From: Chrysochromulina tobinii
Lineage: Eukaryota
Assembly (NCBI GenBank): GCA_001275005.1
Contig: JWZX01001440.1
Coordinates: 1 to 32,094 of the forward strand
Length of the DNA stretch: 32,094 bases
Reading direction: 5' to 3'
Translations under genes and position numbers: made by a program
Shown here: one piece after another, positions 10,324-28,001 of the stretch
Position numbering within the stretch: position 1 is the first letter of the stretch
Layout: each line of letters opens with the position of its first letter
Notes under the pieces: model-generated
Database searches by the model: none
What the model was told of the DNA's origin: nothing
What the model saw: the letters and a program-made list of their open reading frames with translations, nothing else

Positions 10324-13313
10324 TCACAGCTCTTCTTCCTCCGTCTCCTGATCAGTCACACGCCCGTCGTCCTCGGGCGCGTCGACTTCCGCATCGGGAA
10401 GGCTCGCCGCCGCAGCCTCTGCCCGGTCTGAGAGCTGCTTGACCAGCGCTGGCGGGAAGGCGGTGGACTCGTACAGGATAGAGTGGCGCCTCTTGAGCAC
10501 GCCGGGCTGGTGCGTCGCCTGCCATCAAGAGCCATCAAGAGCCATCAAGAGCCATCAAGAGCCATCAAGAGCCATCAAGAGGCCATCAAGAGCTATCAAG
10601 AGCCATCAAGAGGCCATCAAGGTGGCGCACCTGGTCCGCCTTCTGGTAGCTCGCGCAGATGGTCGCCCAATCCAGATCCAAGCGCGGCCCGACGTAGACA
10701 GGGAACCGAGGATAACCGTTCTCCATCAGCTCGGTGAATCGGTAGGTCACGACCGAGCCGACGGGCGGTGGGCTCTTTCGGTCGTGATCGGTCAGACCCG
10801 AGCCGCATGAGAACTGGCGTCCGTCGGGCGTCTCGAGCGTGAGTGCACCTGTGCGGAAGGCAATCCGTTGCAATCAGTAGGAATCAGTTGCGATCAGCGG
10901 GCGTCTCGAGCGTGAGTGCACCTGTGCGGAATGAATTCTTGCCCGCGCCGCCCTCGTGACCCACCACCTTGGCCTCCTCATCCTTCTGACTTTTCACCTG
11001 GGGTCATCAAGCAAAATCAAGCGCAATCAACATCGATCGAATGCGATCAATGGCACTCAAGCGCACTCGAGCGCAATCAAGCGCAATGAAGAGCTCTAAT
11101 CACCTTGAGCAGTGCTTGCTCAATGCTCATACTGCAATCCAGTGCAATCAAGTGCACTCAAGCGCACTCAAGCGCACTCACCTTGAGCAGGTGCTTGCTC
11201 CGGCAGTGCTCATACTGCAATCCAGTGCACTCAAGTGCACTCAAGCGCACTCAAGCGCACTCACCTTGAGCAGGTGCTTGCTCCGGCAGTGCTCATACTT
11301 GGAGCCGGGCCGACGAAGCATCAGCCCCTCGCCCCCACAGGCCTCCACCTTCGCGAGCTCGGCGCTCACGTGCGCACGGCCGGTGCATGTGATCGCGCCG
11401 ACGGGCGCAGCGTATGGCGTGCCAACAGCGGGAATCGATGAACTGCTCGTGCCCGCGACGGCGCCGGTCGAGTGGCTTGTACCGGCCCCGCCGCCGCTGA
11501 CGGTTGATGCTGATGCTGATGCTGATGCTGATGCTGATGCTGGTGCTGCGATGGCAGGGGCAGGGGCGGGTGCTGCTGCGATGGCGGGGGAGGGGATGGG
11601 TTGGATGCAAGACTGTATGAACTTGAGCCGCTCCTCGTATGGCTTGTCGAGCGCAGGGGCATCGAAGACGAGGTACGTGACGTACTGCGCCCGAGATAAG
11701 GTCGGATGCAGTCAGAGGCAACATCTTCCAATCATCAGAGGTCCTCAGAGACAATGCAGTGGCCCTTAGTGGCACTCGGAAGCAATCATCAGCAATCAGT
11801 GGCAATCAGTGGCAATCAGTGGCCCTTAGTGGCACTCGGAAGCAATCATCGGCAATCACGGCTGCTCTCTCACCTGCCACAGGTCACCCGAGGAGGCGGA
11901 GCGAACAATGGAGAGGCAGCGACGGAACTGATGGCGTCCCGCCCACAGCTCGCCATCGAGGGGAGTCGAGGGCAGCCCTAGCTTGAACCACGCGGGCGCC
12001 GGAAACGCATTCCCATTACGCGAGTAGAAGTTGGTGCCGTCCCAATACCTGAAGAGTGAGGCAATCAGAGGTCATCGGAGGTCTCGTCAGAGGTCTCGTC
12101 AGAGTTCGATCTCGCCCCAGTACGCGCGCACGCCGTCGAGCTTCTCGGAGATCAGCCACCCAGTCGGATCCACCTTTTTCGCATCGTACTTGTCGGCGAG
12201 CATGACCTGAGTGGCCTCCGCGGCCGAGGCAGCGTTTGCGAGGACTTGCACCACCGGACCAGACCCTTTGGCTGCTAGGAGCGTAGCATGCATCGCGGCT
12301 CCTGGAGTCACCGGCCCGCCCGCCGCGGCGGCGCTTGCCGCCCAGATCGCCGCTGCCTTCGAGGGCGAGCCCTTGTGTGCCTTGGACGCGCCCGCAGGCT
12401 GTACAGGCAGATTGGCAGGGTCGATGAGGAGATAGGGCGTCACGTCAGGTGGAGCACCGAGGCGTACGGCCTCCTGCACGAAGCCCTCACTCACGACGAG
12501 CGTACCTGTGGGGAAGAGGGGCGCCGTGATGAGCACTTGCATGCAAGGCCTCCTCGGCAGAGCGTTGCGACCCTCAGTCACGACGAGCGTACCCTTGCGC
12601 ATGGCCTCGAGCACCTTGTTCGTCGGGTTGTCTGCCTCGGCGGCCGTCGTGATGAGGTGAGTCGTGTCGCGTGTCACGCCCTGCATGTTGACGGTGGCAC
12701 CTTGCGAGCGCAGCCATGCCCAGAACTGCTTGCGCACCATGGACATTTGGCCCGAGACGCACACCACCATCGAGCCCAAAGGCTTTCCGTGCGGCGGAGG
12801 AGGCAACGGTGCGGGCGGCAACGGTGCGGGCGGCAACGGTGCGGGCGGCAACGGTGCGAGCGGCAACGGTGCGGGCGGCAACGGTGCGGGCGGCACCGGC
12901 GCGGCCGCAGGAGGAGCAAGAACAGGATGAGGCGGCGGTGCTGGATGCGACGACGGCGCAGCTGCTGCGCACGATGCGTGGCTGTACGGGCACTTATCGC
13001 CATCCTTGCAGTATCCCTTGGCAAAGTGCTTGCAATGAACGGTCGCTGCACGCGGCTTCTTCGCGGGAGGCATTGCCGCTGCTGCGGGTGCCTGCTTCTG
13101 CCCCGTCAGCTGCTGGCGTCGCACAGAGCGGATGGTACCTGTCGATGTGTTTGTCTGCTTCATGTCCTGTAAGTCGATCATGTAGGTGCTGCCGGCCGCA
13201 TCGACTCTGACCGACTTCTCGCCGCGAAAGTGGGCTGCTTCCAGATGAGCGTTGTGCCCGCTGTCAAAGTTCTTCCACTTACCGTCGCTCAGCTCATATG
13301 CCCACTGCGCCAT
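10324..13313 (-). CDS. Minimal ATP-dependent DNA ligase fused to N-terminal WWE, CCCH zinc finger, Pro-rich linker and BRCT domains (7 exons, ~728 aa)
   Basis: Hand-spliced exons 13313-12593, 12505-12124, 12048-11874, 11684-11265, 10997-10922, 10848-10631, 10518-10324 (2187 nt, all GT-AG, phases consistent). WWE: QWAYE..GKWKNFD..LEAAH..YMIDLQDMKQTN..TIRSVRR. CCCH: CKHFAKGYCKDGDKCPYSH. BRCT: VVCVSG..GATV..VTRDTTHLI..KGTLVVSEGFV. Ligase motifs: SEKLDGVR (I), SRNG, LDGELW (III), YLVFDAP (IIIa), EGLMLR (IV), LLKVK (V), PRFPVY (VI). Confidence 0.92.
10519..10630 (-). repeat. Ligase intron 6, made almost entirely of a 10-bp tandem repeat (sense TTGATGGCTC)
   Basis: About 10 copies of gccatcaaga between CAG|GTGCGC donor and TGGCAG|GCG acceptor. 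Confidence 0.9.
10849..10921 (-). other. Ligase intron 5 (73 nt), bracketed by an exact 34-bp duplication spanning AG|GT
   Basis: cgggcgtctcgagcgtgagtgcacctgtgcggaa at 10825-10858 and 10898-10931; CTGAT-type filler between the copies. Confidence 0.9.
10998..11264 (-). other. Ligase intron 4 (267 nt): TTGA(G/T)TGCGC 10-mers plus duplicated copies of the exon 4 end and donor
   Basis: 83-bp unit in tandem (11134-11216 and 11217-11299), third degenerate copy at 11100-11133; AGGTGA at both junctions. Confidence 0.85.
11685..11873 (-). other. Ligase intron 3 (189 nt) with CTGATTGCCA 10-mers and an internal 60-bp-period duplication
   Basis: CAG|GTGAG donor, CGCAG|TAC acceptor; cagtggcccttagtggcactcggaagcaatcatc at 11757 and 11817. 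Confidence 0.85.
12049..12123 (-). other. Ligase intron 2 (75 nt)
   Basis: Starts GTACTGGG while the next exon starts GTATTGGG (7/8 match); splicing restores KLDGVRAYWDG. Confidence 0.85.
12506..12592 (-). other. Ligase intron 1 (87 nt, in-frame and stop-free, hidden inside ORF 12099-13313)
   Basis: Its first 22 nt duplicate the first 22 nt of the next exon (1 mismatch), giving GTLVVTEG...GTLVVSEG in the unspliced ORF; it ends GCATGCAAGTGCTCATCACGGCGCCCCTCTTCCCCACAG. Confidence 0.85.
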
Positions 13314-13561
13314 CCTTTTTGCTTGGTGATAGCGCGCCCGAGGGACCTTTACATGTCGTGCTTGGCAAGAGCGCTCGCAAAGAGTTGAAACCCGGAATCG
13401 CGCGAAGAACCAAGCCCCTGCATCAAGCGCTCAATCTTTGATAACCCCGGAGAATGCACACGTTTCGCAGAAATCCGAGCTTCATCTCCCCAAATCGCCG
13501 ACACCGCCGCGTTCGTCGCCTCGCCTTACGCATCCGTCCGGCTGAACCGCCCTCTGAGAGA

Positions 13562-14495
13562 ATGTCAGGCCGTGCCAAGGCACTCTCGGGGCGCAACACA
13601 ATGAGCTCGCTACCAGGCGGCATCTTCGCAAAGCCTCCCGAGTATGATGGCCAGCAGATCCTTGCACAGAAGCAGGCGATCGAAGGTCAGGTCAACGGTC
13701 GGTACAACACCTCGTCCATCGCCGGCGGCATCTTTGCTGCCGGCCAAGGCTCACCCGCCGCCGAGGGACTCTTTGCGGCTGGCGGAGCTCGACTGTCACA
13801 CACTGCTATGGGTGCCGGAGCACGGCCTCAGAGCGCGGCGGGGCGCCCCTATGTCAACGAGTCCTCGGTCTCCGGAGGCATCTTCGAGCGGGACGAAGCC
13901 CCGTCGGCGCCATACCCTGGTAAGCGTCTGTTTCCTCCCACCTCGGACCCGTCAGTGCCCACCAACTTCAGACCGCGCGATCCTGGTCCTATTCTCGGCG
14001 GCGGTGGCCATCGGCAAGCGTGGGCTACCCCTGATGCCGCGGGCGGCCGTTCCAGCAACGCTCACCAGCTCCAGAGCGTACCGATGCGTGGCAACCTGCA
14101 CGGCAGACAGACGCAGCCAAGCTCGGGCGACGGGGCGTTCGCTCGATTTCTGAGCGAACACAGCGGCAACGGTAGCAGTGCGAGCGCCCCAAGCAGCGAG
14201 CTCTTCGAGCGAGCGCCGTATCGGGCGTCGTCCTCGGACCGCTCGCTAGCTCAGAACGACGCCTTCCTTGAGGCGGTCTCGGCCGCCGAGGAGCGCGACG
14301 AGGAGGATCTGCAGACGCTGGCGCAGCTGCGTGAGCTCGCCGAGCAGGAGGAGATCATCGAAGCTGCAGCCGCTCAGTTGGCGTTCGAGCAGCAGCTCGG
14401 GCCTGCGGAACAGGAAGCCCTGCGGATGGCGATGCTCGAGCGCGTGCGACACAAAGCTCGGACACTGCAGCAGCAGATGATGCAAAATCAGATGC

Positions 14496-14528
<33 letters not shown>

Positions 14529-15118
14529 TGCAGATGACCCAAGGCGACCATCTGATGAGGGCAAAGATGCAGCGCCAGCAACAGCGGCACTCCTCAGCGT
14601 ACTCTGAGTACGAGAACGCGGGCGGCGACGGCGCCGCTCATGGCCCGCCGCCCGCCGGGAGCCGACCCGCAGGCGGGCCGTCCGGCCATCTCCTGCACGG
14701 TCTGATGCGCGGGACGCCGCCGCCAGCAAGCCGGGGCACGCCTGGAATGGGCACGCTCCCCGGGATCTTGGCGTCATGTGGCGAGATCGTGCAGGAGCTC
14801 CCAAACCCAATCAAGGGGCGCGGCGCATTCAACCCTGCGGCCGGTGCCGACGGCGCCATGCCCACCGGCTTCGACACAGCCGATGCGGCGGGCCAGGCTG
14901 GTGGCGCAGCTGGCTGGAAAGCGGGCGGCGGCGGCGTCGCTGGCGGCCAGCACTATGCTCAGCTGAGGCTCGAGCATTACCACTCGCCGGCGAAGCAGCC
15001 TCCGATTGGCAAGCTCAAGCCCTACCGACCAGAGTCGCAGGTGAGCTTTGGCGGGCCCGCACGCATCCTGTACCCGAGCTCAGACGTCATGATCCGCGGC
15101 AAGTTCCCGGGCTACTGA
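13562..15118 (+). CDS. Hypothetical disordered protein with three SSxxGGIF motifs, central coiled coil and polyQ (~518 aa)
   Basis: Long ORF divergent from the ligase; SSLPGGIF, SSIAGGIF, SSVSGGIF; (CAG)n at ~14498-14527. The frame is open from 13454; ATG 13562 is preferred by composition. Confidence 0.75.
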
Positions 15119-15186
15119 AACAGGTGGCCGTAGGAATGGCCGCGAATGGAGGGGAGCAGCGAGTCCCGAGTGGGAGCCGCACAAAC

Positions 15187-15280
15187 AGCATGCGCGAGGA
15201 CGAATCACTCAGAGGGCCAAGCGCCCAGAGACGGTGTGTCAAGCTTTTGTCGGATGTTTGATGTTGTGAACGGCAGTTGA
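15187..15280 (+). repeat. Left copy of ~95-bp direct repeat
   Basis: agcatgcgcgagga...gcgcccagagacggtgtgtcaagcttt.gtcggatgtttga.gttgtgaacg...gcagttga; matches 18149-18246 with a 27-bp identical core. Confidence 0.92.
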
Positions 15281-15436
15281 TCGGTCATCATCTTTCAAGT
15301 TTCAACTTACATACTTACTTGAGCGCGGGGGGACCGCGACGAAACTGACTGATTTGCTGCATCAACTTACGATCAGGATCCGGCGGCAAGAGCAAGACGC
15401 TCACCCACAAGGTGTGGGCGCTCGGCCTCACGGTAC

Positions 15437-17335
15437 ATGTTGGGGACCGCCGTGCTACACGATGGCCTCGCGATGCGTCCTCCCATGGGATTCAATTCTT
15501 ACATAGGGCCATCCGGTGGTTTCGTCTGCGTCCCATCCTACGCCACGCCTCTTGCAAAGCCGCCACCCATGGCGCTGAACGATCAAGGATCCTCTGAACT
15601 AAATCATCTCTGCCCTGAAGGCCAGCTGCCTCATCCCACAGCTTACAAGGCGCTCAAGAACCCACCCCCCGGCTGGTCGACCGTCGGCGCGGCTCAAAAC
15701 ACAACCGACACTGCTCCTCCGCACTACTTGTACAATTCGGCCTTCCAAAATTTTGGGAACGGCGTCTCCAGCGTGAACGGCTCCGTCGTCGTCTCTCAGC
15801 CGATCCTCGAGCCCGACGGCTCTTTGAGCGGCGCGCACTCCCTTGCCGAGATTGCCGTGCAGTCCGCCGATCTGCTTCAAATCGTCGAGGTTGGATGGAT
15901 TGTGGGCTATCAAGGTCAGTATCTCGGGCCAAGCCCGACGCTCTTCGTGTTCCACTGGGTCGACGGCGTGGAAACCTGTTACAACGGCTGCGGCTGGGTG
16001 CAAGTCTCCACGACCAGAGTGCCAGGCATGACTCTGGATCCCTCCTCCGCACCTCGCGAGCTCGGCATTCGGTACTTCGAGGGCAATTGGTGGGTCCTCT
16101 TCGACGGCGAGTACATCGGGTACTTCCCTGGCTCACTCTGGGCCGGGGTGCAGCCCAAGTTTGACAGTGCGCATGTGGCCCAGTGGTTTGGGGAGGTGGT
16201 GTCAGAGAAATTGATCAAACCGACGACGCAGATGGGTAACGGCATATTCGGCGACCAGGCAGGTGCATGCCATTGGAGCCACTTGTCTTACTCGCAAGGA
16301 GACAAAACCCATTGGGCAAACCCACAATATGATGTGACCGACCCGACGCTCTATAACATCGGTCATAAAGGCGTCGATCACGGGTATGCATTCGGTGGCC
16401 CGGGCTATGTGCCGCCAGCGCCGCCAGCGCCGCCAGCGCCGCCAGCATCGCCTCCGTCTCCGCCAGCGCCACCAGCGTCGCCTCCGCCTCCGGGCCACGG
16501 GTGCCACGCGGCGTACGCACCAATCGAGCCTGCAGGGATCGCGCTCGGCTGGTTTTTGACGATTGCCACGCTGCTTGCGCCATCGCCGCAATACGTGGCT
16601 CTGTGCCGAAGCCGCAGCTCACATGGCATCTCGCTGCTCACGCCATTGCTCAACCTGGTATACGGCGTGCTCAACTTATGCAGTGCCATCCTCACCAAGT
16701 GGCCCTCCATTCAGCGCTGTGGCGATTCGTCGTTAGCGGGTGCATTTGAAGCTGATGGCTGCGTGGATCAGCTCCTCGACGTGTGGCAAGTCGCGATCAG
16801 CGCGCTCGGCCTCTCTGTCATCTTGGCCTTGGTGGTGCTCTTCCCGCCGCACAACTTTGCCAAGGAGCGTGCGCTCGTTGTCGTCACGCTTTGTTGCCTC
16901 GCCCTGACCATATTTGCCGCGTGCTACCTCAGCGCTCTCAGCCCGTGCTCGGAGGCGAGCCACACGCTGTCGCAGACCTTTGCAGTGCTCTCCGCCCTGA
17001 TCGTCGTCGTGGCCTTCGCGCCGCAGCTGTACGAGACATGGAGGACAAGGGGAGCTGGCTCCCTCTCGAGCCTCTACTACCTTATCCAATCGATAGGCAC
17101 CGCTCTCGTGGTGGTCCTGCAGCTTGTCGCGCTGCGCGACTCGATCCTCGTGTGGGGTCCGAACTCAATCTCAATGGCCGTGCAGGGCGGCATCTTCTCG
17201 ATGCTCTGCTACTACCGCCGCTGTGCGGGCCGTCGCAGCGGAGGTACCACGGGCGCCGATCCGCTGCTCGTCGTGCAGGAGTCCGCGCAGGCCGCCGCCG
17301 CGGTAAACGTTGGGCGATGGGCGCCGCTGACGTGA
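15437..17335 (+). CDS. Fusion protein: neprosin-family glutamic peptidase + Pro-rich linker + PQ-loop 7TM transporter (632 aa), with a GH27-like N-terminal fragment
   Basis: One stop-free ORF. Neprosin: CPEGQLP (pro-peptide end), HSLAEIAV, QIVEVGW, PTLFVFHW, CYNGCGWVQVS, GNWWV..EYIGYFPGSLW, AQWFGEV, TQMGNG, FGGPG. PQ-loop: LAPSPQY..RSRSSHGISL and AFAPQLYETWRTRGAGSLS, with about 7 hydrophobic segments. Confidence 0.88.
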   Translation: MLGTAVLHDGLAMRPPMGFNSYIGPSGGFVCVPSYATPLAKPPPMALNDQGSSELNHLCPEGQLPHPTAYKALKNPPPGWSTVGAAQNTTDTAPPHYLYNSAFQNFGNGVSSVNGSVVVSQPILEPDGSLSGAHSLAEIAVQSADLLQIVEVGWIVGYQGQYLGPSPTLFVFHWVDGVETCYNGCGWVQVSTTRVPGMTLDPSSAPRELGIRYFEGNWWVLFDGEYIGYFPGSLWAGVQPKFDSAHVAQWFGEVVSEKLIKPTTQMGNGIFGDQAGACHWSHLSYSQGDKTHWANPQYDVTDPTLYNIGHKGVDHGYAFGGPGYVPPAPPAPPAPPASPPSPPAPPASPPPPGHGCHAAYAPIEPAGIALGWFLTIATLLAPSPQYVALCRSRSSHGISLLTPLLNLVYGVLNLCSAILTKWPSIQRCGDSSLAGAFEADGCVDQLLDVWQVAISALGLSVILALVVLFPPHNFAKERALVVVTLCCLALTIFAACYLSALSPCSEASHTLSQTFAVLSALIVVVAFAPQLYETWRTRGAGSLSSLYYLIQSIGTALVVVLQLVALRDSILVWGPNSISMAVQGGIFSMLCYYRRCAGRRSGGTTGADPLLVVQESAQAAAAVNVGRWAPLT

Positions 17336-18148
17336 CCCCACGCCTACAGCTGTACCCGGCTACGGTACCCGCTGGACCGAACCGCAAAGATGAGAGGTGT
17401 GTAAGAATTTGCACCGACACCGACACGTTCACACACGCGCTCATACCATGGTGGGTTCGGCACAGAAGCACAGGGGCGGGATTAGAAGGGCGAAAGGCCC
17501 ATCGCGAGCTTAAAGCTCATGGCGGGGGTGGCGAAAAGGACCGTGGTCGTGTCTGCCATGACGATGGCGGAGGAAATAGGATGTGTGGTGGTGCGCGAGG
17601 AATGTTTGGGGGGAGGATGGCGACAGGCCTTAGGCCCTTAGCGGTGTGTACTGCAGATCCGGTCGGGTGTGACATCGTAGTCTGATTGTTGTCTGATTGT
17701 TGTCTGAGCCCCGGCCTATACGTCGAAATACGTAACGAAACCTATCGACTAACCTATACTTTTCAACCATTCAACGGCTAAACGTCATGCTAAACGTGCA
17801 CGCAATGTCACCACCCTTCCCCACAGGGGGAGAGTGGGACCACCCTCGTCCCTCCTCTACGGGGGCGGCCACGACGTCCGCAACACCCGCCATACAACAG
17901 CAAAAGAAACGAAACCTCCCAACCCACCCCCCGTCGGGAAAGCGGGGTTCGAGGTGTGGGTTCTTACTAAGGGGGGTCTAGTTAGTGTGCGCCACTGCAC
18001 AGACCGTACCGTACCGTAGTACACGTCCATCCATTGCGGGGACGTATGTACGTCAGAACCTCGGGTGCGTGCGTGTTTTGGTATGGTCCGGTCACCAAAA
18101 GCAAACTTTCCTAAACGTGCACGCAACCTTATCCATACCAGCATAAAT

Positions 18149-18246
18149 AGCATGCGCGAGGATGAAACACGCTCAGAGGCCAGGCGCCCAGAGACGGTGT
18201 GTCAAGCTTTAGTCGGATGTTTGACGTTGTGAACGCGTGCAGTTGA
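18149..18246 (+). repeat. Right copy of ~95-bp direct repeat
   Basis: Aligns to 15187-15280 with a few substitutions and small indels. Confidence 0.92.
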
Positions 18247-18562
18247 CAGTTCTGAGTTCAGCTTCAGGTCCGATGTGACATTGAAAAACAGGTGCAGTAT
18301 CATTGCGATGCGTCCTCCCTATGCAAACGTTTGGAAGGGTAGCTTGTTCCGTTACAAATCTCTCTGCCTATGCACACGAAATGTCCGTCCATAGCGACAG
18401 TGGCTCTCGTGCTTGGGGGTCCGGAGAGTGTGCGCGCGTTGTGTTGAACAGCAGCAGCACGAAATGCGACCACGCGCCGTAGCGGCACACCGATCCGGTT
18501 CACGATGTCGACGAAAGTGCGCATGAACCAACCACGAGCGACGCACACGGAGAACCAGCACC

Positions 18563-21500
18563 ATGCCAGCCGCCGCTGAGGATGAGCCCGATGAGTCGGA
18601 GCAGCCATTCTACTCTGCATATGGCAAGATCAGCAGCCGCTTCGGTGCCGACGCGAACGACGAGCCCACGGTCGAGGACCTGACTGCCGCAGACTTTCGG
18701 GAGGGTGGCAAGGTGCCAAAGATTGCTCCCTCGGAGAGCACAACGCTGACTCTATTCGTCGAGCGGTGCACGGCTAAGCGTCCGACCGAGACGCTCAAAG
18801 GTAGGAGCGAAAAGTACGACGAATGCCAGGCGGCTCTGGATGCCGCCTTCCGCGAGCACTTTGCCGACTGGAACCCGTCAGCAATCGAGATTGTGTCCAA
18901 TCCGAAGCCGGCGCAGTCACCGTACGTCTTCCTGCCGCCCAACCAGGCGTTTGCGTACAAGGGTCGCGTCAACAGCTTGGATGCTCCGCTATTCATCCAC
19001 GATCTCGGCCCGTCGACGCGACAGCAGCTCCTCGATGGCACTCTGGTCATCGATGCGTCCGACTTCCCGCCACAGCTGCTCAAGTACCCGCGTGTCGGCG
19101 CGTTCGAGGTCACCTACCAGCTTTACGATGGCTATCGGCCAATCGCGCAAAAGCTCGTCTTCTCCAAGCTCGCGACGAACACTTGGCCCTCTCCAGCCCA
19201 GTTGGTCAAGCGGATCGCGCTTCACGTGCAAATGGACCTATACCGGCAAAGTCGGTCGCACGCCAAGTTGGCCACCGATTTGCGCGCAAAAGCGGGCAAG
19301 TGTGCGCAGGAGCTTGCGGCGGCGCTAGGCATGATGCAGGAGCAGCAGCAGCGCGCCGAGGCGACCGCCGCGGAGCTCTCGGCAGCAGCTGACGCCGAGA
19401 GCGGCGGCGAAGGCGCTTCGGCGCTGGCGACGCTTCAGGAGCGCACGGCCGCCGAGCGCCAAAAGGCACTCGCAGCACGCTTCGCGTACGACAGGGTGCG
19501 CGTTCGGCACGCAGACCTGATAGCCAAGGCGGAGGTCGCCGAGGCACGGGTGGCGATGCAGACTGCCAAAAAGGAGCTAGTCGAGTGGGAGGCGTCGCAG
19601 AAGACGCTCGAGGATGCCTTGCAACGAGTTGAGGCCTTCGCCATTGCGGGCGATTCGAGCCTCGCGAGCGAGTTTCGCCAGCATGCACACGTCCTACGCA
19701 GAAACGCCGACCGCGAACTTGCCGAAGCGCGTGCCGCGCAGGAGAGCGCCACCAAGGAGCTGCTCGAGGCCATGCACGCCGACATGCGTGCCGCGGAGGC
19801 CAAGGAGGCGCTGTGCAGCTCCGCCGTCGCCGCAGCCACAGAGGCCGGTGCCGACGTCATCGAGATCGAACGGAAGCGCGCTGCGATGCTCAAGGCGCAT
19901 GAGGGCGTCGTCGAGGCGCGCGTGCGCATCGAGGATGCCGAGGCCCAAGCTGCGATGGCCGCCGCCGACATTGAGTTCAAGGAGGCGGTATCGGTGATGC
20001 TGCAAGCCAAGCTCGCGCGAAATGAGGCCATGTATGCTCCTTCCGGCGATGCCGAGGCTGCCGCCACCCACGCCGCCGAACTCAAGCAGAGAGCCCTCGA
20101 AGAGCTCCAGGACGCTCGCCAGCACCTCAATCGTGCGGCGAATGAGGCCATCGAGGCGGCCGAGGCTCGGCACGCCAAGGAGGTGTCCGAGGCCCAGCAG
20201 GCCAAATGGGACTTGACGGCCGCAGAAGCGGCGCTGACCGGAGGCACTCTTGGCGGCGCGAAGAAGACGGCACGGCACGTTGCGGACATGGAGCGGCTGC
20301 GCCAGATTGTGGAGCGCGAGAGCAGCCAAGCTGAGGTGTCCAAGCTCAACTTGCAGATCACGAGGCGGGAGCTCTCCGAAAAGCAAGCGGCCATCGAGGA
20401 GGTGGTCGAGAAGGCCTTGGCGGAGGAGGCGCAGGAAGCGGCCGAGCGACGCAAGCGGGAGCTCGCGGCGGCGGCCGTAAAGGAGCGTGACGAGGCCGAC
20501 GCGGCCATCGCCCAAGCCGCTCGCCTCGATGCGATGGCCGAGGAGGCGGAGAAGGCAGCCGTGGCGGCCACGCTGCGTGCGGGGGAGCTGGTGCGCCAGC
20601 ACGGGCGCCACAACCCGCTCTCCAGCTCGGCGCTCGCCTCCGAGCGCCAGGCGAAGGACGTTGCCTTTCAGCTACGGCGGGATGCGACTCAAGCCGCGGC
20701 GGCGGCGGAGCGGGAGCGGCTCGAGGCGGAGAGCGCAGAGATCAGCAAGGAGGAGATGGAGGCCGAGCTCGCGTACGAGCACTATCGCCTCGTGAACGTC
20801 AAGCTGGACGTCCAGCGCAACAACGTGATCAGTCTTCTGGAGCAGATGGAGGAGGTGGCCGCCACTGGCGAGCTCGAGCTCGAGCTGCGAGTCGCCGAGA
20901 CCGCCGCCGCTGCGCAGGCGGTGCTCGACAAGCTGGCCGAGCAGAGCGAGGAGGCGCTGCGCCAGGCGCGCAAGGAGTTGGAGGACGTGGCGGTGATACG
21001 CGAGCGCTTCGAGCAGCAGCAGCTCGCGTGTTCCGAGAAGCAGCTGTCCAAGCTGAGCAACCTCGCCGAGGACGCCGAGACGGCGGCCGAGGCGGCGAGT
21101 GCACACCTCGCCGAGGTGATGTCAGCCGTCGTGGTGAAGACGGCAGCTCTCAAAGAGGCCCAGGAGAACGTCCGTGCGGCAGAGGCTCGCACGTCGGGTG
21201 CTCGCGCGGCGCTTGCGAGCGTGCGTGCGCGCCTCGACCGCGAGCGAGACGAGTTTGGCGTGGCAGCGGTGAAGCGGCTGGAGGCGGCGAGAGAGATGAC
21301 TGGTGTGCTGGCCGAGCAGGTGGTGGTCAAAGTTGCGACGCTGGAGATGCAGCTCGAGGCGGCGCATCGCAAGGAAGAGATTGCGAAACAGCTGGACAAT
21401 CAAATCGCCGTGCGGAGCGCGAAGGCAGCGATCAAGCAGCTATCCACGCGGCTGGCAACGGCGGTGGCCAAGAAGGCTGAGGTCGACGCGCTGGTGATCG

Positions 21501-21868
21501 CGGCGGCCGACGCCGTCGAAGCAGGCATCCGAAAGCAAATGCGCAACGAGGCAGTGGCCGCCAGCACGATGGCGAGCGTTGCCGAGGCGATGGCTGCGAG
21601 AGCGGAGGCCGAGGCGAAGGCCGCGGTCGCGCAACACGCGAATGTCGTCAAGGACGCCACCGCCAAGGGCTATGCAAGCAGTGATGCAAAGCGTCAGGTG
21701 GACCTGGCAAAGCACTTGGAGAGGGCTGCGATCGCAAAGGCCGCTCGCAAGCGTGATCAGGCACGAGACGCTAGGTCGGAGGCGGAGGCGGCCGAGAAGT
21801 TGGCGTGTGGCAAGATTGAGGAACGAGTGCAGAGTCTCGCAGTCGAAAGAAGGAAGGAGCAACGATGA
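18563..21868 (+). CDS. 1101-aa protein: N-terminal Rdx/SelW-like thioredoxin-fold domain followed by ~870 aa of Ala/Glu-rich coiled coil
   Basis: Long ORF with GC3-rich codons; LFVERC...YPRVGAFEV...LVFSKLATNTWPS resembles the Rdx-family G-x-FEV...FSKL..xP pattern; the remainder is heptad-like and almost Pro-free. Confidence 0.85.
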   Translation: MPAAAEDEPDESEQPFYSAYGKISSRFGADANDEPTVEDLTAADFREGGKVPKIAPSESTTLTLFVERCTAKRPTETLKGRSEKYDECQAALDAAFREHFADWNPSAIEIVSNPKPAQSPYVFLPPNQAFAYKGRVNSLDAPLFIHDLGPSTRQQLLDGTLVIDASDFPPQLLKYPRVGAFEVTYQLYDGYRPIAQKLVFSKLATNTWPSPAQLVKRIALHVQMDLYRQSRSHAKLATDLRAKAGKCAQELAAALGMMQEQQQRAEATAAELSAAADAESGGEGASALATLQERTAAERQKALAARFAYDRVRVRHADLIAKAEVAEARVAMQTAKKELVEWEASQKTLEDALQRVEAFAIAGDSSLASEFRQHAHVLRRNADRELAEARAAQESATKELLEAMHADMRAAEAKEALCSSAVAAATEAGADVIEIERKRAAMLKAHEGVVEARVRIEDAEAQAAMAAADIEFKEAVSVMLQAKLARNEAMYAPSGDAEAAATHAAELKQRALEELQDARQHLNRAANEAIEAAEARHAKEVSEAQQAKWDLTAAEAALTGGTLGGAKKTARHVADMERLRQIVERESSQAEVSKLNLQITRRELSEKQAAIEEVVEKALAEEAQEAAERRKRELAAAAVKERDEADAAIAQAARLDAMAEEAEKAAVAATLRAGELVRQHGRHNPLSSSALASERQAKDVAFQLRRDATQAAAAAERERLEAESAEISKEEMEAELAYEHYRLVNVKLDVQRNNVISLLEQMEEVAATGELELELRVAETAAAAQAVLDKLAEQSEEALRQARKELEDVAVIRERFEQQQLACSEKQLSKLSNLAEDAETAAEAASAHLAEVMSAVVVKTAALKEAQENVRAAEARTSGARAALASVRARLDRERDEFGVAAVKRLEAAREMTGVLAEQVVVKVATLEMQLEAAHRKEEIAKQLDNQIAVRSAKAAIKQLSTRLATAVAKKAEVDALVIAAADAVEAGIRKQMRNEAVAASTMASVAEAMAARAEAEAKAAVAQHANVVKDATAKGYASSDAKRQVDLAKHLERAAIAKAARKRDQARDARSEAEAAEKLACGKIEERVQSLAVERRKEQR

Positions 21869-22668
21869 CGTTGGTAGTACGGTAGCACGAATGAGTCGCA
21901 ATGTAGGAGTCAGTTATAGAAGAGTTGTTTGAGAGTCGCCTACCCTACGGCTGAGCGACCGGAGAACGAGCCCGGTCTGTAAGTAAAAGTAGTAATTCAC
22001 GCCTCCAGGCAGCGTACACGTCTCACGGCGAGCCCGGACCGGCCAATTGGGGCCGGCGCGGGCGCCACCGGACGCGAAAAGCGCGATGGTCCGAGCTCCG
22101 ACACGGTTCATATCATAACCATGTTCAACTTTTCACACGTCATATGTGAGTCTGAGGCAGCCATCAGGTGGTGGAATAAGAGAGTACGTCTACGTTTCTA
22201 GAAGTGCAGCGCATGTTCTGCGCTTCGTTGGGGGTACGCTTGGCGTGTGTGCGAGCATCGCGGACGAGGCAGGGGCGTCGCGTGCCAAAACGTGGCAGGA
22301 ATTGGCCAAGGACCCCTCGAGGTGACCTGCCTTTGGGGGTTGTGCGCGCCGTTCACAGCTGCCGTTCACACCCCGAAGCTTTCTTTCCTTATCGAGCGCG
22401 CGATGGCTGAGGAGAACCTTGTTTGCCAGTGCTGAGCAGTCGGCTTCGCCAGCGAGTTGGCTCATCGCGCGCTCCGTCGCTCTTCGTGCTAAACGTGCGT
22501 CGGTGCGATCGCTGCACGGTCACACCGCACCGCCTTCGCACACGGAATACATCGAGTCCGCTCCCTGGTAGGTGCTTTCTTCCACGGAGCCCGCGGGGCA
22601 CTTCTGCATCTCAGTGCTGCCGAATACACACGCTGCCTAAGCCTCTCTTCTTCTCTCTTGTTCGCAGG

Positions 22669-24129
22669 ATGATCGCGATGCTCATCAACTGTGTAGCGGA
22701 GAAGACCAACGCCCACAGCGATAAAATCAACTCGGTCACCTTTTCGCCCGATGGCACGAAGATCGTGTCGGGATCGGCTGACGGGACGATCAAAGTCTGG
22801 GATTCGGGTGCGCTGCGCCCTCAAATCGCCCTTTCTTGGCCAAAACTGACGCCTGTGTTGGCTTGCCTGGCAGACAAGCTCGAGTTGCTGAGCGAGAAGA
22901 CGAACGCCCACAGCGACTACATCACGTCAGTCGCGTTTTCCCCAGACGGGGCCAAGATTGCGTCGGGATCGTACGACAGGACGATCATAGTCTGGGAATC
23001 GGGTGCGCCGGAGCCCTCAAAATCGCCCCTCCTTGGCCAAAACTGACGCCTGCTGGCTTGTCTGGCAGACAAGCTGGAGCTGCTGAGCGAGAAGACGGTC
23101 GCCCACAGCGACTGCATCAACTCGGTGACGTTTTCACCGGACGGAACCAAGATCGTCTCGGGATCGCACGACGGGACGATCAAAGTCTGGGATTCGGGTG
23201 CGCCGCGAGCTCAAAATCGCCCCTCCTTGGCCAAAACTGACGCCTGCTGACTTGTCTGGCAGGCAAACTGGAGCTGCTGAGCGAGAAGACGAACGCCCAC
23301 CGCGGTGCCTTAAAGGCAGTCGCGTGGGTCGCGTTTTCCCCGGACGGGACCAAGATCGTGTCTGCATCGGACGACAAGACTATCAAAGTCTGGGATTCGG
23401 GTGTGCCGAAGCCCTTAAAATCGCCTCTCCTTGGCCATAAACTAACGCCTGTTGGCTTGTCTGACAGACAAACTGGAGCTGTTGAGCGAGAAGACGAACG
23501 CCCACAGCGACTGCATCATGGTGGCGTTTTCCCCGGACGGGACCAAGATCGTGTCAGGATCGTGGGACAAGACGATCAAAGTCTGGGAATCTGGTGCGCC
23601 GAAGCCCTCAAAATTGCCCCTCCTTGGCCAAAACTAACGCCTGTTGGCTTGTCTGGCAGGCAAGCTGGAGCTGCTGAGCGTGAAGATGAACGCACACAGC
23701 CAAGAAATCACGTCGGTGGCGTTTTCCCCGGACGGGACCAAGATTGTGTCCGGATCGGACGACCAGACGATCAAAATCTGGGATTCGGGTGCGCCGGAGC
23801 CCTCAAAATCGCCCCTCCTTGGCCAAATCTGACGCTAGCTGGCTTGTCTGGCAGGCGCATTGGAGCTGTTGAGCGAGAAGACGGTCGCCCACAGCGACTG
23901 GGTCATGTCGGTCGCGTTTTCCCCGGACGGGGCCAAGATTGTGTCCGGATCGTACGACGGGACGATTAAAGTCTGGGATATGGTCAAGTGGTCTCGCAAA
24001 GATCATTTGATGTTCAATGATACCACCCAGCGATTCGTCTTGCTGCTGCTGTGGCTGAACAAATACAGTATGAAGTTTCCGGATGATGTGCTTGATCTAC
24101 TCATCGAAACTTGCTTGCAAAGCAGTTGA
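22669..24129 (+). CDS. WD40 protein, 7 near-identical repeats at one per exon, with C-terminal F-box-like helical tail (~354 aa)
   Basis: Exons 22669-22807, 22874-23002, 23069-23197, 23263-23400, 23468-23593, 23660-23788, 23855-24129 (1065 nt, open frame); six phase-1 GT-AG introns of 65-67 nt. Repeat consensus [42 protein letters not shown]. An acceptor just before the ATG suggests an upstream exon. Confidence 0.92.
22697..23979 (+). repeat. Tandem array of ~195-bp exon+intron units
   Basis: Intron consensus gtgcgccg.agccctcaaaatcgcccctccttggccaaaactgacgcctg.tggcttgtctggcag occurs six times. Confidence 0.95.
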
Positions 24130-24544
24130 GAGGTGTGGGGTGACGGCGGCTGGATGTGTCGCATCCGATCTGATCCACACGGGTCATGGCGCGCGCCGTT
24201 CTAGAGAGTCCTCGAGCAGTCGAATGATTCAGATTGACACGCATATGTTGACACAGGAACTTGTAAACTGCCTGTTAATTACTGGTACCACGTGCCCCAG
24301 GTATGGGGTACCACGCGAAAAATGCAATGCCAAATCCTGTCGTGTTAACGTTCACACACACGTTCACACCTCTTGCGGGGAGAAAAAACCGAGCTGAACT
24401 GTGTGTGGAGACCGCGCGCGTAAAACATGGGCCGCGTGCTCTTGAAGGAGCTCCGCAACGCGGCGCCGCGCGCGCCTTCCGACCGCCTTTCGACCGACAA
24501 CGTGCGACCACTGGTCCTCTGCAGGCTCTCACAGATAAATCCGA

Positions 24545-27500
24545 ATGAGGCGGCGGAAAATCAAAATTGGGTGGCCACGGCACGTTCAGATGAGTTTGGT
24601 GCACGAACGGAGGGCGGAGGCGAGGGTTGGTGCGCAGCTGATGCAGGCGCTGCAGGCGCAGGTGGTACAACTGACGAACCGTGTTTCTACCCTAGACGAA
24701 GCTCTCCTTGCCGAGCGTCGGGAAAACGAACAGCTGTCTCAAGAACGAGCAGAACGGCTTCGGGCGCAGGCGGAGGCGTCTGAGAACGCGTTGCGCGACC
24801 AGTTCCGAGCACTGTCGGCTCGGGTAGAAGCGCAAGTGGATCAAGGCGAGAAATCTCTTCGAGACTATCCTTCTCAGTTACGTGCCCAGGCGGACGCGTC
24901 GGAGGGGGTGCTCCGGCAGGAGATTGCGCGCCTGCGCTCGGAGGCAGCCGTTTCGCTCTCCGCCGCCAGCCCAAACTCGAGTCGTCCCCCGACTGTTGCG
25001 GAGCTGGGCCTCCGAGTGGAAGCGCTCAAGCAGTTGAAGGAGAGTGGCGTTCCAGCCTTCCCAGCTAAGGAACTTGGGTATACGCTCATGGAGCTACGGC
25101 TTGCAGGCTACTCGTTTGCGGAAGTGAGGCTCATACCCGGGTATACGCTCGCCGAGATCAAGGCCGTTGGGTACGTCGAGGGCCTCAAGGCGGCCGGGAT
25201 TAAGTGTGACGACGCCAAGGCGGCCGGCTACACGCTCGCCGAGATGAGAGCGGGTGGCTTCACGTGCGCCGATGCCAAGACGGCCGGCTACACGCTCGCC
25301 GAGATGAGAGCGGGTGGCTTCACGTGCGCCGACGCCAAGGCGGCCGGGTTCGTCGAGGGCCTCAAGGCGGCGGGCTTCACGTGCGTGGAGGCCAAGGCGG
25401 TCGGCTACACGCTTGCGGAGATGAGAGCGGATGGCTTCACGTGCGCTCAGGCCAAGATGGCCAGCTACACGCTCACAGAGATGAGGGCAGACGCATACAC
25501 GTGCCTCGAGGCGAAGACGGCCGGCTACACGCTTGAGGAGATGAGAGCGGGTGGCTACAACTGCGCCGAGGTCAAGGCGGCTGGCTACACATGTGTCGAA
25601 GCCAAGGCGGCGGGCTACACGCTCAAGGAAATGAGGGGCGCTGCGCCGGCCGCCGGGCCTGCTACCAGTGGCTTTTCATTCGGTGCGCCACCTGCATCCG
25701 CTGCGCCCGCTGTGCCCGCTGCGCCGGCGACGGGGGGCTTTTCGTTCACTGCGGTCGGCAACCCGCCTAGCACTCCGGTCACCGCGCCTGCTACCAGTGG
25801 GTTTTCATTCGGTGCGCCCGCTGCGCCCGCTGCGCCGGCTGCGCCGGCGACGGGTGGCTTTACGTTTACTGCGCTCGGCAACACGCCTTGCACGACGACC
25901 GCCGCGCCTGCTACAAGTGGCTTTTCATTTGCTGCGCCAGCAACAGTTGGCAAAGGACGAGGACGAGGACGAGGCACCAGCACGCCGGCCTCCGCGCCTG
26001 CTACAAGTGGGTTTTCATTCGGTGCGCCCGCTGTGCCAGCGACGGGTGGCTTATCATTTGCTGTAGTCGGCAGCCCGCCTGGCGACCAAGCAGGGCCTCG
26101 CCCGTCTTTCAAGGCAAAGCGGCCCGCAAAACCAGCCTTTGGCAGCCCCGCCGCCGGCTCTGGTTCACCGCCGGCACCAACCACTGGAACTCTGGCGGCG
26201 GCAGTCCCTTTGTCAAACGCCGCCCTGGAAAAGCTACACACGGCGGTGAAGGAGAACCAGTTGGCCGATGTGAAAACTCTGCTCGCCTCGGGCTCAAACC
26301 TAGTCAACATGGCTGATGACAACGGGATGACGGCACTCATCTGGGCTGCATCCAAGGGCCATGGTGAGATGGTCGGAGTCCTCCTCGAATTCGGCGCGGA
26401 CAAGAAAGCGGTGACGAAAAAGGGCAATAACGCACTGCAGGCAGCCAAAATGGGTCAAGAACAGGCTCCCGGCGACGCGCGTTTCGACCATGCTATCCGA
26501 ATTCTAGAAGCCCCGCCCGGACTCAAGCTCGAAGGTGGCTCGCTGCCAGGAAATGCGGCCAAATACGGTGGCACCTACAAGCTTGATCCGAGGAAGCTTG
26601 TAAACGGCCGGCCCGCGTATCAGCACACGAGCGATGCAACTTGCTGGATTGCGTTCGCTGGAGACCGCTGGATGGGGCTGCCTGAGTCGCTACTTGGTGA
26701 GAAGAAGGGCTTCCTGGACCTAACAGACTCAGCTGCTGCTTCGCCCGACGTGAGTGCCAAGACATGGAAGGTGAGCGGCAGAGCGGGCTCTGGTTGGGTT
26801 GAGGCGCCGCAGCTCAAGTGCACTGCTTGGACGCCGCCGCCGCCGCCACTCGCCGCCGAGCCCGTCGGTGCAATGGCTGGTAGTTCGGCGGGCTTTTACA
26901 CATGCGCCGAGGCCAAGACGGCAGGCTTCACGCTTACTGAGATGAGAACGAGCGGGTACACATGCGCCGACGCCAAGGCGGCCGGGTTCGTCGAGGGCCT
27001 CAAGGCGGCGGGGTTCACTTGCCTCGAGGTGAAGACGGTCGGCTACACGCTCGCGGAAATGAGAGTGGGTGGCTTCACATGCGCCGAGGTCAAGGCGGCC
27101 GGGTACGTCACGGGCCTCAAGGAGGCCGGCTACACGTGCCTCGAGGTGAAGGCGGCCGGCGGTGGCTTCACGTGCGCCGACGCCAAGGCGGCCGGGTTCG
27201 TCGAGGGCCTCAAGGCGGCGGGGTTCACTTGCCTCGAGGTGAAGACGGTCGGCTACACGCTCGCGGAGATGAGAGTGGGTGGCTTCACATGCGCCGAGGT
27301 CAAGGCGGCCGGGTACGTCACGGGCCTCAAGGAGGCGAGCTACACGTGCCTCGAGGCGAAGGCGGCCGGCTACACGCTCGCAGGGATGAGAGCAGGCGGA
27401 TACAATAGCACCGAGGTCAAGGCGGCCGGCTACACACTTGCGGAGATGAGAGTGGGAGGGTACACCGAGGGCCTCAAGGCGCTCGGCTACACGTGCGCCG

Positions 27501-28001
27501 AGGCGAAGGCGGCCGGGTACGTCATGGGCCTCAAGGAGGCGGGCTACACATGCGCGGAGGCCAAGGCAGGCAATTACACGTGCGCTCAGGTCAAGATGGC
27601 AGGGTATACGCTCGCAGAGATGAGAGCAGCCGGCTTCACGTGCGCCGAGGCGAAGGCGGCCGGGTTCAATCCCAAGGAGTCCATGCAGGCTGGCTTCACC
27701 TACCAAGAGGGGCTTGCGGTGGGTTATCCTTCCCATATCGATGGCCATCCTACCAATGTTACGTCGTGGAACTTCGGTATGCAACCACCGCGACTCGAAT
27801 CGACGATCTCCCTCCCCGCGCTCCCACCGCCTCCGCGCGCGCGCCCCTCAGTCCAGCGTCCAATGAGGCGGGCCGCGGCGCTGCGTGCGGCCCGCGCCCT
27901 GCGTGCGGCTTGCTGGCGTAGTGACCCTTGCTGCAGACTCACGCCCGCTCGTGTGCGCGCATGGCGCAGGGGTTTATGACTGGAATGGGAACGATTTGTG
28001 A
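24545..28001 (+). CDS. Mosaic repeat protein (~1090 aa): coiled coil, Cys-containing decapeptide repeats, GFSFG repeats, ankyrin repeats, small beta-rich domain, second decapeptide array
   Basis: ORF 24545-27979. AG(Y/F)TxxExKA decapeptides at ~25070-25635 and ~26890-27725; ATSGFSFGAP repeats ~25660-26060; ankyrin DNGMTALIWAASKGHGEMVGVLLEFGAD. A probable last intron 27777-27969 (GTATGC...CTCAC...CGCAG) gives the C-terminus NFGVYDWNGNDL* ending at 28001. Start uncertain (24545, 24590 or 24641). Confidence 0.85.

Follow-up and report, generated by a model that had tools for sequence, protein, structure and literature searches.

A putative young chimera of a neprosin-type protease and a PQ-loop membrane protein in Chrysochromulina tobinii

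Introduction

Cystinosin, one of the PQ-loop proteins (PF04193), has a lumenal domain that is non-catalytic and is preceded by a signal peptide. PQ-loop proteins are reported to hold their N-terminus in the lumen (PMC3281891), and the canonical sorting motif of two members, PQLC2 and Ypq1, is given as [DE]XXXL[LI] (PMC4649669). For plant neprosin, one study assigns an E188/E297 dyad by mutagenesis, reports an inactive enzyme upon loss of Q173 or W175 and describes a zymogen that activates itself at acid pH (PMC9343461); a preprint lists, as of 2022, no neprosin domains outside plants, fungi and bacteria (10.1101/2022.02.22.481544). HGT-chimeras, in which foreign and host intervals share one open reading frame (ORF), are reported from arthropods, with an origin by duplication and with signs of purifying selection (PMC13389597).

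Here we analyse a stretch of 32,094 nucleotides of Chrysochromulina tobinii DNA (contig JWZX01001440.1; hereafter the window, meaning the whole stretch at its full length). An initial annotation, made from the letters alone, had noticed an ORF joining a neprosin domain to a PQ-loop domain and had imagined its product in the food vacuole of a mixotroph, a kind of host that agrees with the reported phagotrophy of C. tobin (PMC4580454). It knew of no described fusion of this kind. Our literature search likewise found no paper with both neprosin and PQ-loop and, among the titles and abstract openings of the neprosin papers listed, none on an alga or on a transporter fusion; the gene tables of the C. 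tobin paper may include the locus. The fusion is real and young, and apparently undescribed.

Results

A chimeric ORF among eukaryotic genes

The features of the locus are as follows.

15179 to 15280, forward strand: first copy of a direct repeat of ~100 nt, inside the RNA-covered 3' region of the upstream gene (repeat comparison)
15400 to 15435, forward strand: out-of-frame hydrophobic stretch immediately before M1, its frame lacking an ATG (best 11-residue hydropathy 1.49)
15437 to 17335, forward strand: chimeric ORF P0001, 632 aa (stop-free translation; identical in metagenome contigs L001-L003)
15452 to 15505, forward strand: residues 6-23, motif resembling the mature N-terminus of GH27 alpha-galactosidases, at the place of the relatives' signal peptides (PSSM)
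15506 to 15721, forward strand: residues 24-95, bacterial-type pro-domain with C31, C59 and K74 (relatives' alignment, AF2 model)
15722 to 16411, forward strand: residues 96-325, neprosin catalytic domain with E151, E253 and C181-C185 (Pfam, AF2, Foldseek, conserved columns)
16412 to 16498, forward strand: residues 326-354, Pro-rich stalk of 9-nt units, <90 nt (junction; stand-alone PQ homology begins at 16484)
16499 to 17236, forward strand: residues 355-600, seven-helix PQ-loop domain with P384-Q385 and P529-Q530 (Pfam, AF2, Foldseek, conserved columns)
17237 to 17332, forward strand: tail predicted to be cytosolic, DPLL motif at 17258-17269 (shared with relatives of ~50% identity)
18141 to 18246, forward strand: second repeat copy, 88% identical to the first, the pair bracketing the fusion gene (repeat comparison)

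The reading frame of P0001 is open already from 15353, upstream of M15437. Two checks proposed in the initial annotation, a Pfam scan and structure prediction, were run: Pfam finds Neprosin (E 2.1e-25, residues 134-322) and the PQ-loop in two stretches (E 1.4e-15), both past the Pfam cut-offs, and separate AF2 models of the halves show a neprosin fold and the seven-helix fold of SWEET, cystinosin and KDELR proteins. The uninterrupted ORF of 632 codons is confirmed, and its Pro-rich stalk (16412-16498) and DPLL tail (17258-17269) are as first described.

Three metagenome contigs (L001-L003; 26 of 102 pattern matches in the contig scan were confirmed) match the window at 100% over 11.9 kb (10437-22332), fusion junction included, one of them being possibly the window's own source and all three possibly one strain. 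Between 97 and 99% of 204 sampled words are present in 11 DNA runs, each run a possible source of the window. Given the identity in three contigs and the words in 11 runs, an assembly join in the Pro-rich linker, which had been named as a possible objection, is unlikely. The in-frame fusion is well supported at the DNA level, and its transcription weakly. Searches for exact copies of P0001 and of four variants of its start gave no match in protein collections; the Atlas contains an identical sequence, which may come from the sample that yielded the window.

The neighbouring genes are eukaryotic by Pfam. They include a WWE, CCCH zinc finger and BRCT protein (12099-13430, reverse strand), which we take to be a PARP12/ZAP-like combination of modules; WD40 exons lying within a 195-nt tandem repeat that covers exon and intron (22411-24020, forward strand); and an ORF of 1146 aa in which decapeptide repeats (PF25296) flank ankyrin repeats (24539-27979, forward strand). 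Non-coding arrays of a 10-nt repeat (GGCAATCAAG-like) occupy 10507-11864 and 30140-30308. A 33-nt element at 15320-15352, present as a single copy in the window, is common to many unrelated RNA-run contigs with loose ends on both sides; Rfam returned three weak matches, all far under gathering scores and none for this element. An exact 15-mer is found at 15470-15484, where it overlaps the GH27-like motif, and again at 18305-18319, so that it stands in the same order with the ~100-nt repeat before and after the fusion gene. The repeat pair and the 15-mer may record insertion or duplication of a unit.

A protease half of bacterial type

Folded alone, the protease half gives an AF2 model with a pTM of 0.84, the top Foldseek match of which is neprosin 7zva (E 2.3e-15), with a beta-sandwich fold. 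The candidate catalytic motifs picked out in the initial annotation, VEVGW and WFGEV, contribute E151 and E253, the counterparts of neprosin E188 and E297 in the alignment. P0001 keeps every one of the 25 columns that show no variation among 43 relatives and 44 of the 50 columns conserved at 90% or more, and the residues invariant in bacterial-type neprosin relatives comprise H134, E138, E151, H173 and E253 (P0001 numbering). Neprosin Q173 and W175 are absent from P0001, their places being paired with H134/E138 by HMMER and with E138/A140 in a by-eye motif alignment. Because these two residues, essential in the plant enzyme, are not kept, the post-proline peptidase activity first proposed for the protein is not assured.

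Homology to the bacterial relatives starts at about residue 24, where their leaders end, and includes the Cys pair and K74, a lysine conserved in at least 90% of relatives and a candidate latency residue of the pro-domain. The protease half is ~40% identical to a bacterial neprosin clade over residues 25-325 and scores up to 177 bits against bacterial relatives versus 38 against plant neprosin. A protein search yielded 43 matches among 7,994 scored candidates, each covering at most 49% of the query and bearing bacterial names where names were given; no PQ-loop domain is listed among these 43. Relatives are encoded in 239 genome stretches, the best 80 of which come from Actinomycetota, Myxococcota and others. 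In the Atlas, the feature neighbours of the protease include plant-rich clusters, and the best structural row is 97% bacterial. In a 78-row FastTree of bacterial rows only, the P0001 protease lies on a long branch without a well-supported sister; a lateral origin is therefore likely.

The relatives form a large uncharacterised bacterial neprosin clade (P0002-P0044, L007-L114), with MYXO-CTERM tails in some members and eight matches on viral contigs. A viral source of the protease half was considered and rejected, as these eight matches, at 24-38% identity, fall below the bacterial ones. No long multi-pass tail occurs among the 108 ORFs extracted from bacterial protease relatives.

A PQ-loop half derived from a recent duplicate

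The PQ half, folded alone from a 9-row alignment, gives seven long helices with a pTM of 0.66, and Foldseek ranks SWEET first, followed by cystinosin and KDELR (best E 8.2e-4). Of the 36 subfamily-conserved columns, 34 are kept in the fusion, the same 34 as in a stand-alone copy. The NCBIfam cystinosin model TIGR00951 has no match to P0001 at E 0.1, and relatives score 13-24 bits where the cut-off is 192; the PQ half falls instead in a eukaryotic subfamily that is uncharacterised and has additional conserved cysteines, its Atlas neighbours being hypothetical PQ-loop proteins. Since it is not cystinosin-like by NCBIfam and its subfamily is uncharacterised, the amino-acid export initially ascribed to it is an assumption, which our searches leave unsupported. 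The pairs of Cys conserved in the N-terminal segment and in loops fit a lumenal N-terminus, as do the basic loops that follow helices 1, 3, 5 and 7. The tail sequence GADPLL has Asp at -2 and no acidic residue at -4 of [DE]XXXL[LI], and thus departs from the acidic dileucine; a sorting role of the tail is still likely, because its LL is conserved in 61-77% of 103 relatives.

A stand-alone PQ gene (L004-L006) matches the window only over 16484-17331, at 91.8% nucleotide identity. It has a short Pro-rich start and faces a long ORF head to head only ~270 nt away, which leaves no room for a protease. That ORF (L005, 3397-4791, reverse strand) contains ~93-aa internal repeats and is, judging by motif, presumably an NYN/LOTUS protein. 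The exact stand-alone protein is an annotated Chrysochromulina parva entry, and a near-identical fragment is C. tobinii KOO24132.1. Both PQ copies are present in run X12, where 22 of 22 variant bases equal L005. Compared pairwise over 275 codons, a measure that does not date the fusion branch, the fusion and stand-alone copies show a dS of 0.20, a dN of 0.052 and a dN/dS of 0.26: there is purifying selection between the two copies, as seen in the PQ half. Their 27 amino-acid differences divide into 6 on the fusion, 15 on the stand-alone copy and 6 unassignable. Neutral simulation (1,000 runs) gave ~57 amino-acid differences and 0.4% stop-free ORFs at 0.1 substitutions per site, and 12 differences and 27% stop-free ORFs at 0.02.

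The nearest PQ outgroups (49-71% identity) all stand alone, and among the best 150 of 664 PQ representatives only 3 have more than 200 residues ahead of the PQ domain, the other 147 being without a long N-terminal extension; the stand-alone state is therefore taken as ancestral. None of the same best 150 matches the neprosin profile. P0001 has no Met between M266 and M580, so the fusion copy is without a start of its own, and, as its flanks are not homologous to those of the paralogue, homology being limited to the coding part, it could hardly be made except as part of the fusion. Our results very probably reflect a chimeric gene of recent origin, apparently assembled from three parts (a GH27-like start, neprosin and PQ-loop). 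The fusion is a young, lineage-limited chimera and not a conserved module, with a dS of 0.20 and no neprosin in the best 150 of 664 PQ representatives.

Protein, genome and metagenome searches found no such fusion in a second species, and the PQ region matched none of 7,642 candidate proteins of 347-1106 aa at E 1, a rarity bounded by protein collections that are poor in intron-bearing eukaryote genes. Four other PQ proteins (P0054, P0069, P0062 and P0078) are mosaics, in which a fusion-type paralogue is mixed with a stand-alone one or two kinds of stand-alone paralogue are mixed; they would stem either from gene conversion in wild populations or from co-assembly.

Transcription of the locus

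Mismatch-free RNA pieces lie in both halves in three of four runs (X12, X13 and X14; one run is a freshwater metatranscriptome), and in X17 an RNA contig with a single difference covers 15485-15741. Pieces from the PQ half include 7-39 sites that distinguish the fusion from the paralogue and hence derive from the fusion copy. Freshwater RNA of both 2017 and 2023 contains fusion-type sequence, each piece having 0-1 differences. Depth over the fusion is ~3; in X12 and X13 the upstream gene reaches ~28. RNA spanning 16400-16530 had been suggested at the outset as a check: pieces were found in both halves, and none of those listed from the four runs forms a contig across the stalk (16412-16498).

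A missing leader and a GH27-like N-terminus

The caveat that no clean signal peptide is visible at M15437 holds. Hydropathy detects none, the best 11-residue value before the catalytic domain being 1.21, whereas 100 of 101 protease relatives reach at least 1.9, in a comparison that dropped 7 of 108 relative ORFs (open-ended or without the motif) and used stop-to-stop stretches, longer ones being favoured by chance. A disulfide-bonded domain of ~350 residues is unlikely to pass the ER membrane without a signal peptide. None of 24,099 enumerated one- and two-intron splice models puts a hydrophobic leader beside the pro-domain, and the best models for a leader draw on sequence within the RNA-covered region of the upstream gene. 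An intron ending at AG 15506 is contradicted by the unspliced RNA-run contig 15485-15741. The out-of-frame stretch at 15400-15435 is possibly what remains of a signal peptide. The lumenal placement first proposed for the protease agrees with the topology reported for the PQ family (PMC3281891); for its entry into the lumen, neither a signal peptide nor a convincing splice model was found.

Residues 6-23 were compared with GLAxxPPMG[WF]N of the mature GH27 N-terminus, a likeness first spotted by eye, 17 GH27 loci being fetched afterwards. The PSSM from these loci ranks residues 6-23 first of 107,536 six-frame 19-mers (20.0 bits, next 5.6), with at most 10 of 19 identities to GH27 and a score below those of 16 of the 17 leave-one-out GH27 members. 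Pfam and PDB searches gave no GH27 match for the segment; in the AF2 model residues 1-25 are disordered, with a pLDDT below 50 over residues 6-23. On our reading, the protease gene may have taken the 5' end of a GH27-like gene, its leader being either unseen or recently broken.

Other fusions in the same PQ subfamily

Two further proteins carry N-terminal additions to a PQ-loop domain of this subfamily, each known as a single predicted protein without genomic context and thus possibly a gene-calling merge. In P0114, the C-terminal part of a sialate O-acetylesterase (PDB 9ega, E 6e-14) is in frame with the PQ domain; in P0104, a Cys-rich N-terminal domain and a Pro stalk precede it. The N-terminal domain of P0104 has no match in Pfam and three in the PDB, all of them mannose-6-phosphate receptors at a non-significant E of 0.11. 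In a 41-row PQ tree (6 chosen rows and 35 top representatives), the three fusions need three separate origins, and P0114 offers a hint that N-terminal fusions recur in this subfamily. It is doubtful that lumenal hydrolases or cargo-binding domains have been captured again and again by a PQ subfamily of phagotrophic protists, yielding food-vacuole digest-and-export or digest-and-anchor units of which P0001 would be a newborn case.

Discussion

Our tentative preference is for a product that would be a protease zymogen tethered to the membrane, activated by acid and brought to the vacuole by its PQ half. Under this model, a laterally acquired neprosin gene would have exchanged its bacterial signal peptide for the start of a GH27-like gene. 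A duplicate of the PQ gene, comprising its coding part alone, would have joined behind the protease, its short Pro-rich start expanding into the stalk. The chain would enter the ER through some leader, placing protease and stalk in the lumen ahead of helix 1, and the tail dileucine would direct it to an acidic compartment. There, low pH would free the pro-domain and the protease would cut prey or turnover proteins, possibly once shed from its stalk. The PQ half would act as anchor and address label, comparable to the MYXO-CTERM tail of some bacterial relatives; transport activity may have been kept, and coupling of transport to the products of the protease would not be needed.

Somewhat less likely is a mis-targeted or decaying young chimera, a former secretory-pathway protein that would have lost its signal peptide recently and whose product would be mis-inserted or degraded. 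The lack of an in-frame leader before the protease speaks for such decay, as does the out-of-frame hydrophobic stretch that directly precedes the GH27-like motif, exactly the position of the signal peptide in GH27 proteins. RNA depth is low, the terminal branch of the protease is long, 6 of 50 near-invariant columns are missing from it, a larger loss than in 40 of the 43 relatives, and intact stand-alone PQ paralogues are available as back-up. Decay is harder to reconcile with 632 codons free of stops and frameshifts, in which every invariant residue is kept, and with fusion-type RNA in freshwater samples of both 2017 and 2023 at 0-1 differences per piece.

The coupled digest-and-export unit of the initial annotation, a lumenal protease feeding an attached PQ-loop exporter in a food vacuole, we regard as quite unlikely. 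Its topology would be right if a leader exists, the PQ motifs and conserved residues are intact, the host group is described as phagotrophic (PMC4580454), and the same PQ subfamily has independently been joined to a sialate O-acetylesterase (P0114) and to a weakly mannose-6-phosphate-receptor-like domain (P0104). Yet such varied partners across lineages suit anchoring equally well, the subfamily has no assigned substrate, P0001 is without a cystinosin model match, the closest solved folds of its PQ half are sugar SWEETs, and 147 of the best 150 of 664 PQ relatives are without a long N-terminal domain. An endopeptidase, moreover, yields peptides, whereas cystinosin and PQLC2 export free amino acids. 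With no leader, an uncharacterised PQ subfamily and peptides as products, a tethered protease feeding its exporter finds no support here.

Two adjacent genes in chance in-frame juxtaposition, with separate or scarce expression, or an assembly join, are very improbable: no RNA contig crosses the stalk among the pieces listed and the mosaic proteins P0054 and P0069 show that paralogues recombine or co-assemble, but the junction is found at 100% identity in three contigs, the stalk repeat is short (9-nt units, <90 nt), no stop follows the protease domain and the PQ half is without a start codon.

The locus represents a datable eukaryotic gene birth in which a bacterial-type enzyme was combined with a duplicated host membrane protein, the stand-alone paralogue persisting for comparison. 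If made and lumenal, the tethered zymogen that we tentatively prefer would be a protease borne on a PQ-loop protein, an arrangement that our searches did not find described. It would also add an alga to an uncharacterised bacterial neprosin clade whose active-site environment is different, a point relevant to acid endopeptidases. If the leader is truly lost, the gene would be a curiosity of gene birth and decay. The second hydrolase fusion (P0114) points to where the function of this orphan PQ-loop subfamily may be sought.

Comparison with known systems

Similar to Nepenthes neprosin (PDB 7zva/7zvb, PF03080), the protease half has the neprosin fold (TM 0.78-0.80 by mature target, Foldseek E 2.3e-15), the matched residues E151/E253, C181-C185 and Y99 (neprosin E188/E297, C219-C224 and Y136) and, ahead of the catalytic domain, a pro-domain containing a disulfide and a conserved lysine. 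Unlike neprosin, to which it is 24-25% identical, P0001 does not keep Q173/W175, has no Neprosin_AP match, is without a signal peptide and is borne on a 7TM protein. The same pro-domain cysteines and lysine are found in bacterial neprosin-family proteins of Actinoplanes, Kofleriaceae and other myxobacteria, Nitrospirota and Chloroflexota; by contrast with P0001, 100 of 101 of these relatives possess a hydrophobic leader, and their tails, where present, are no more than single-pass (MYXO-CTERM in some). The PQ half shares two PQ motifs, seven helices, the fold and a C-terminal dileucine-like motif with PF04193 proteins (cystinosin, PQLC2/Ypq, SWEET and KDELR) and differs from cystinosin in lying outside TIGR00951, in an uncharacterised subfamily with extra conserved cysteines. 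Compared with the arthropod HGT-chimeras, the gene has a haptophyte host, apparently consists of three parts and is known here chiefly from DNA; like those chimeras (PMC13389597), it unites a bacterial-type protease and a host-derived PQ domain in one ORF, with duplication and, in its PQ half, purifying selection.
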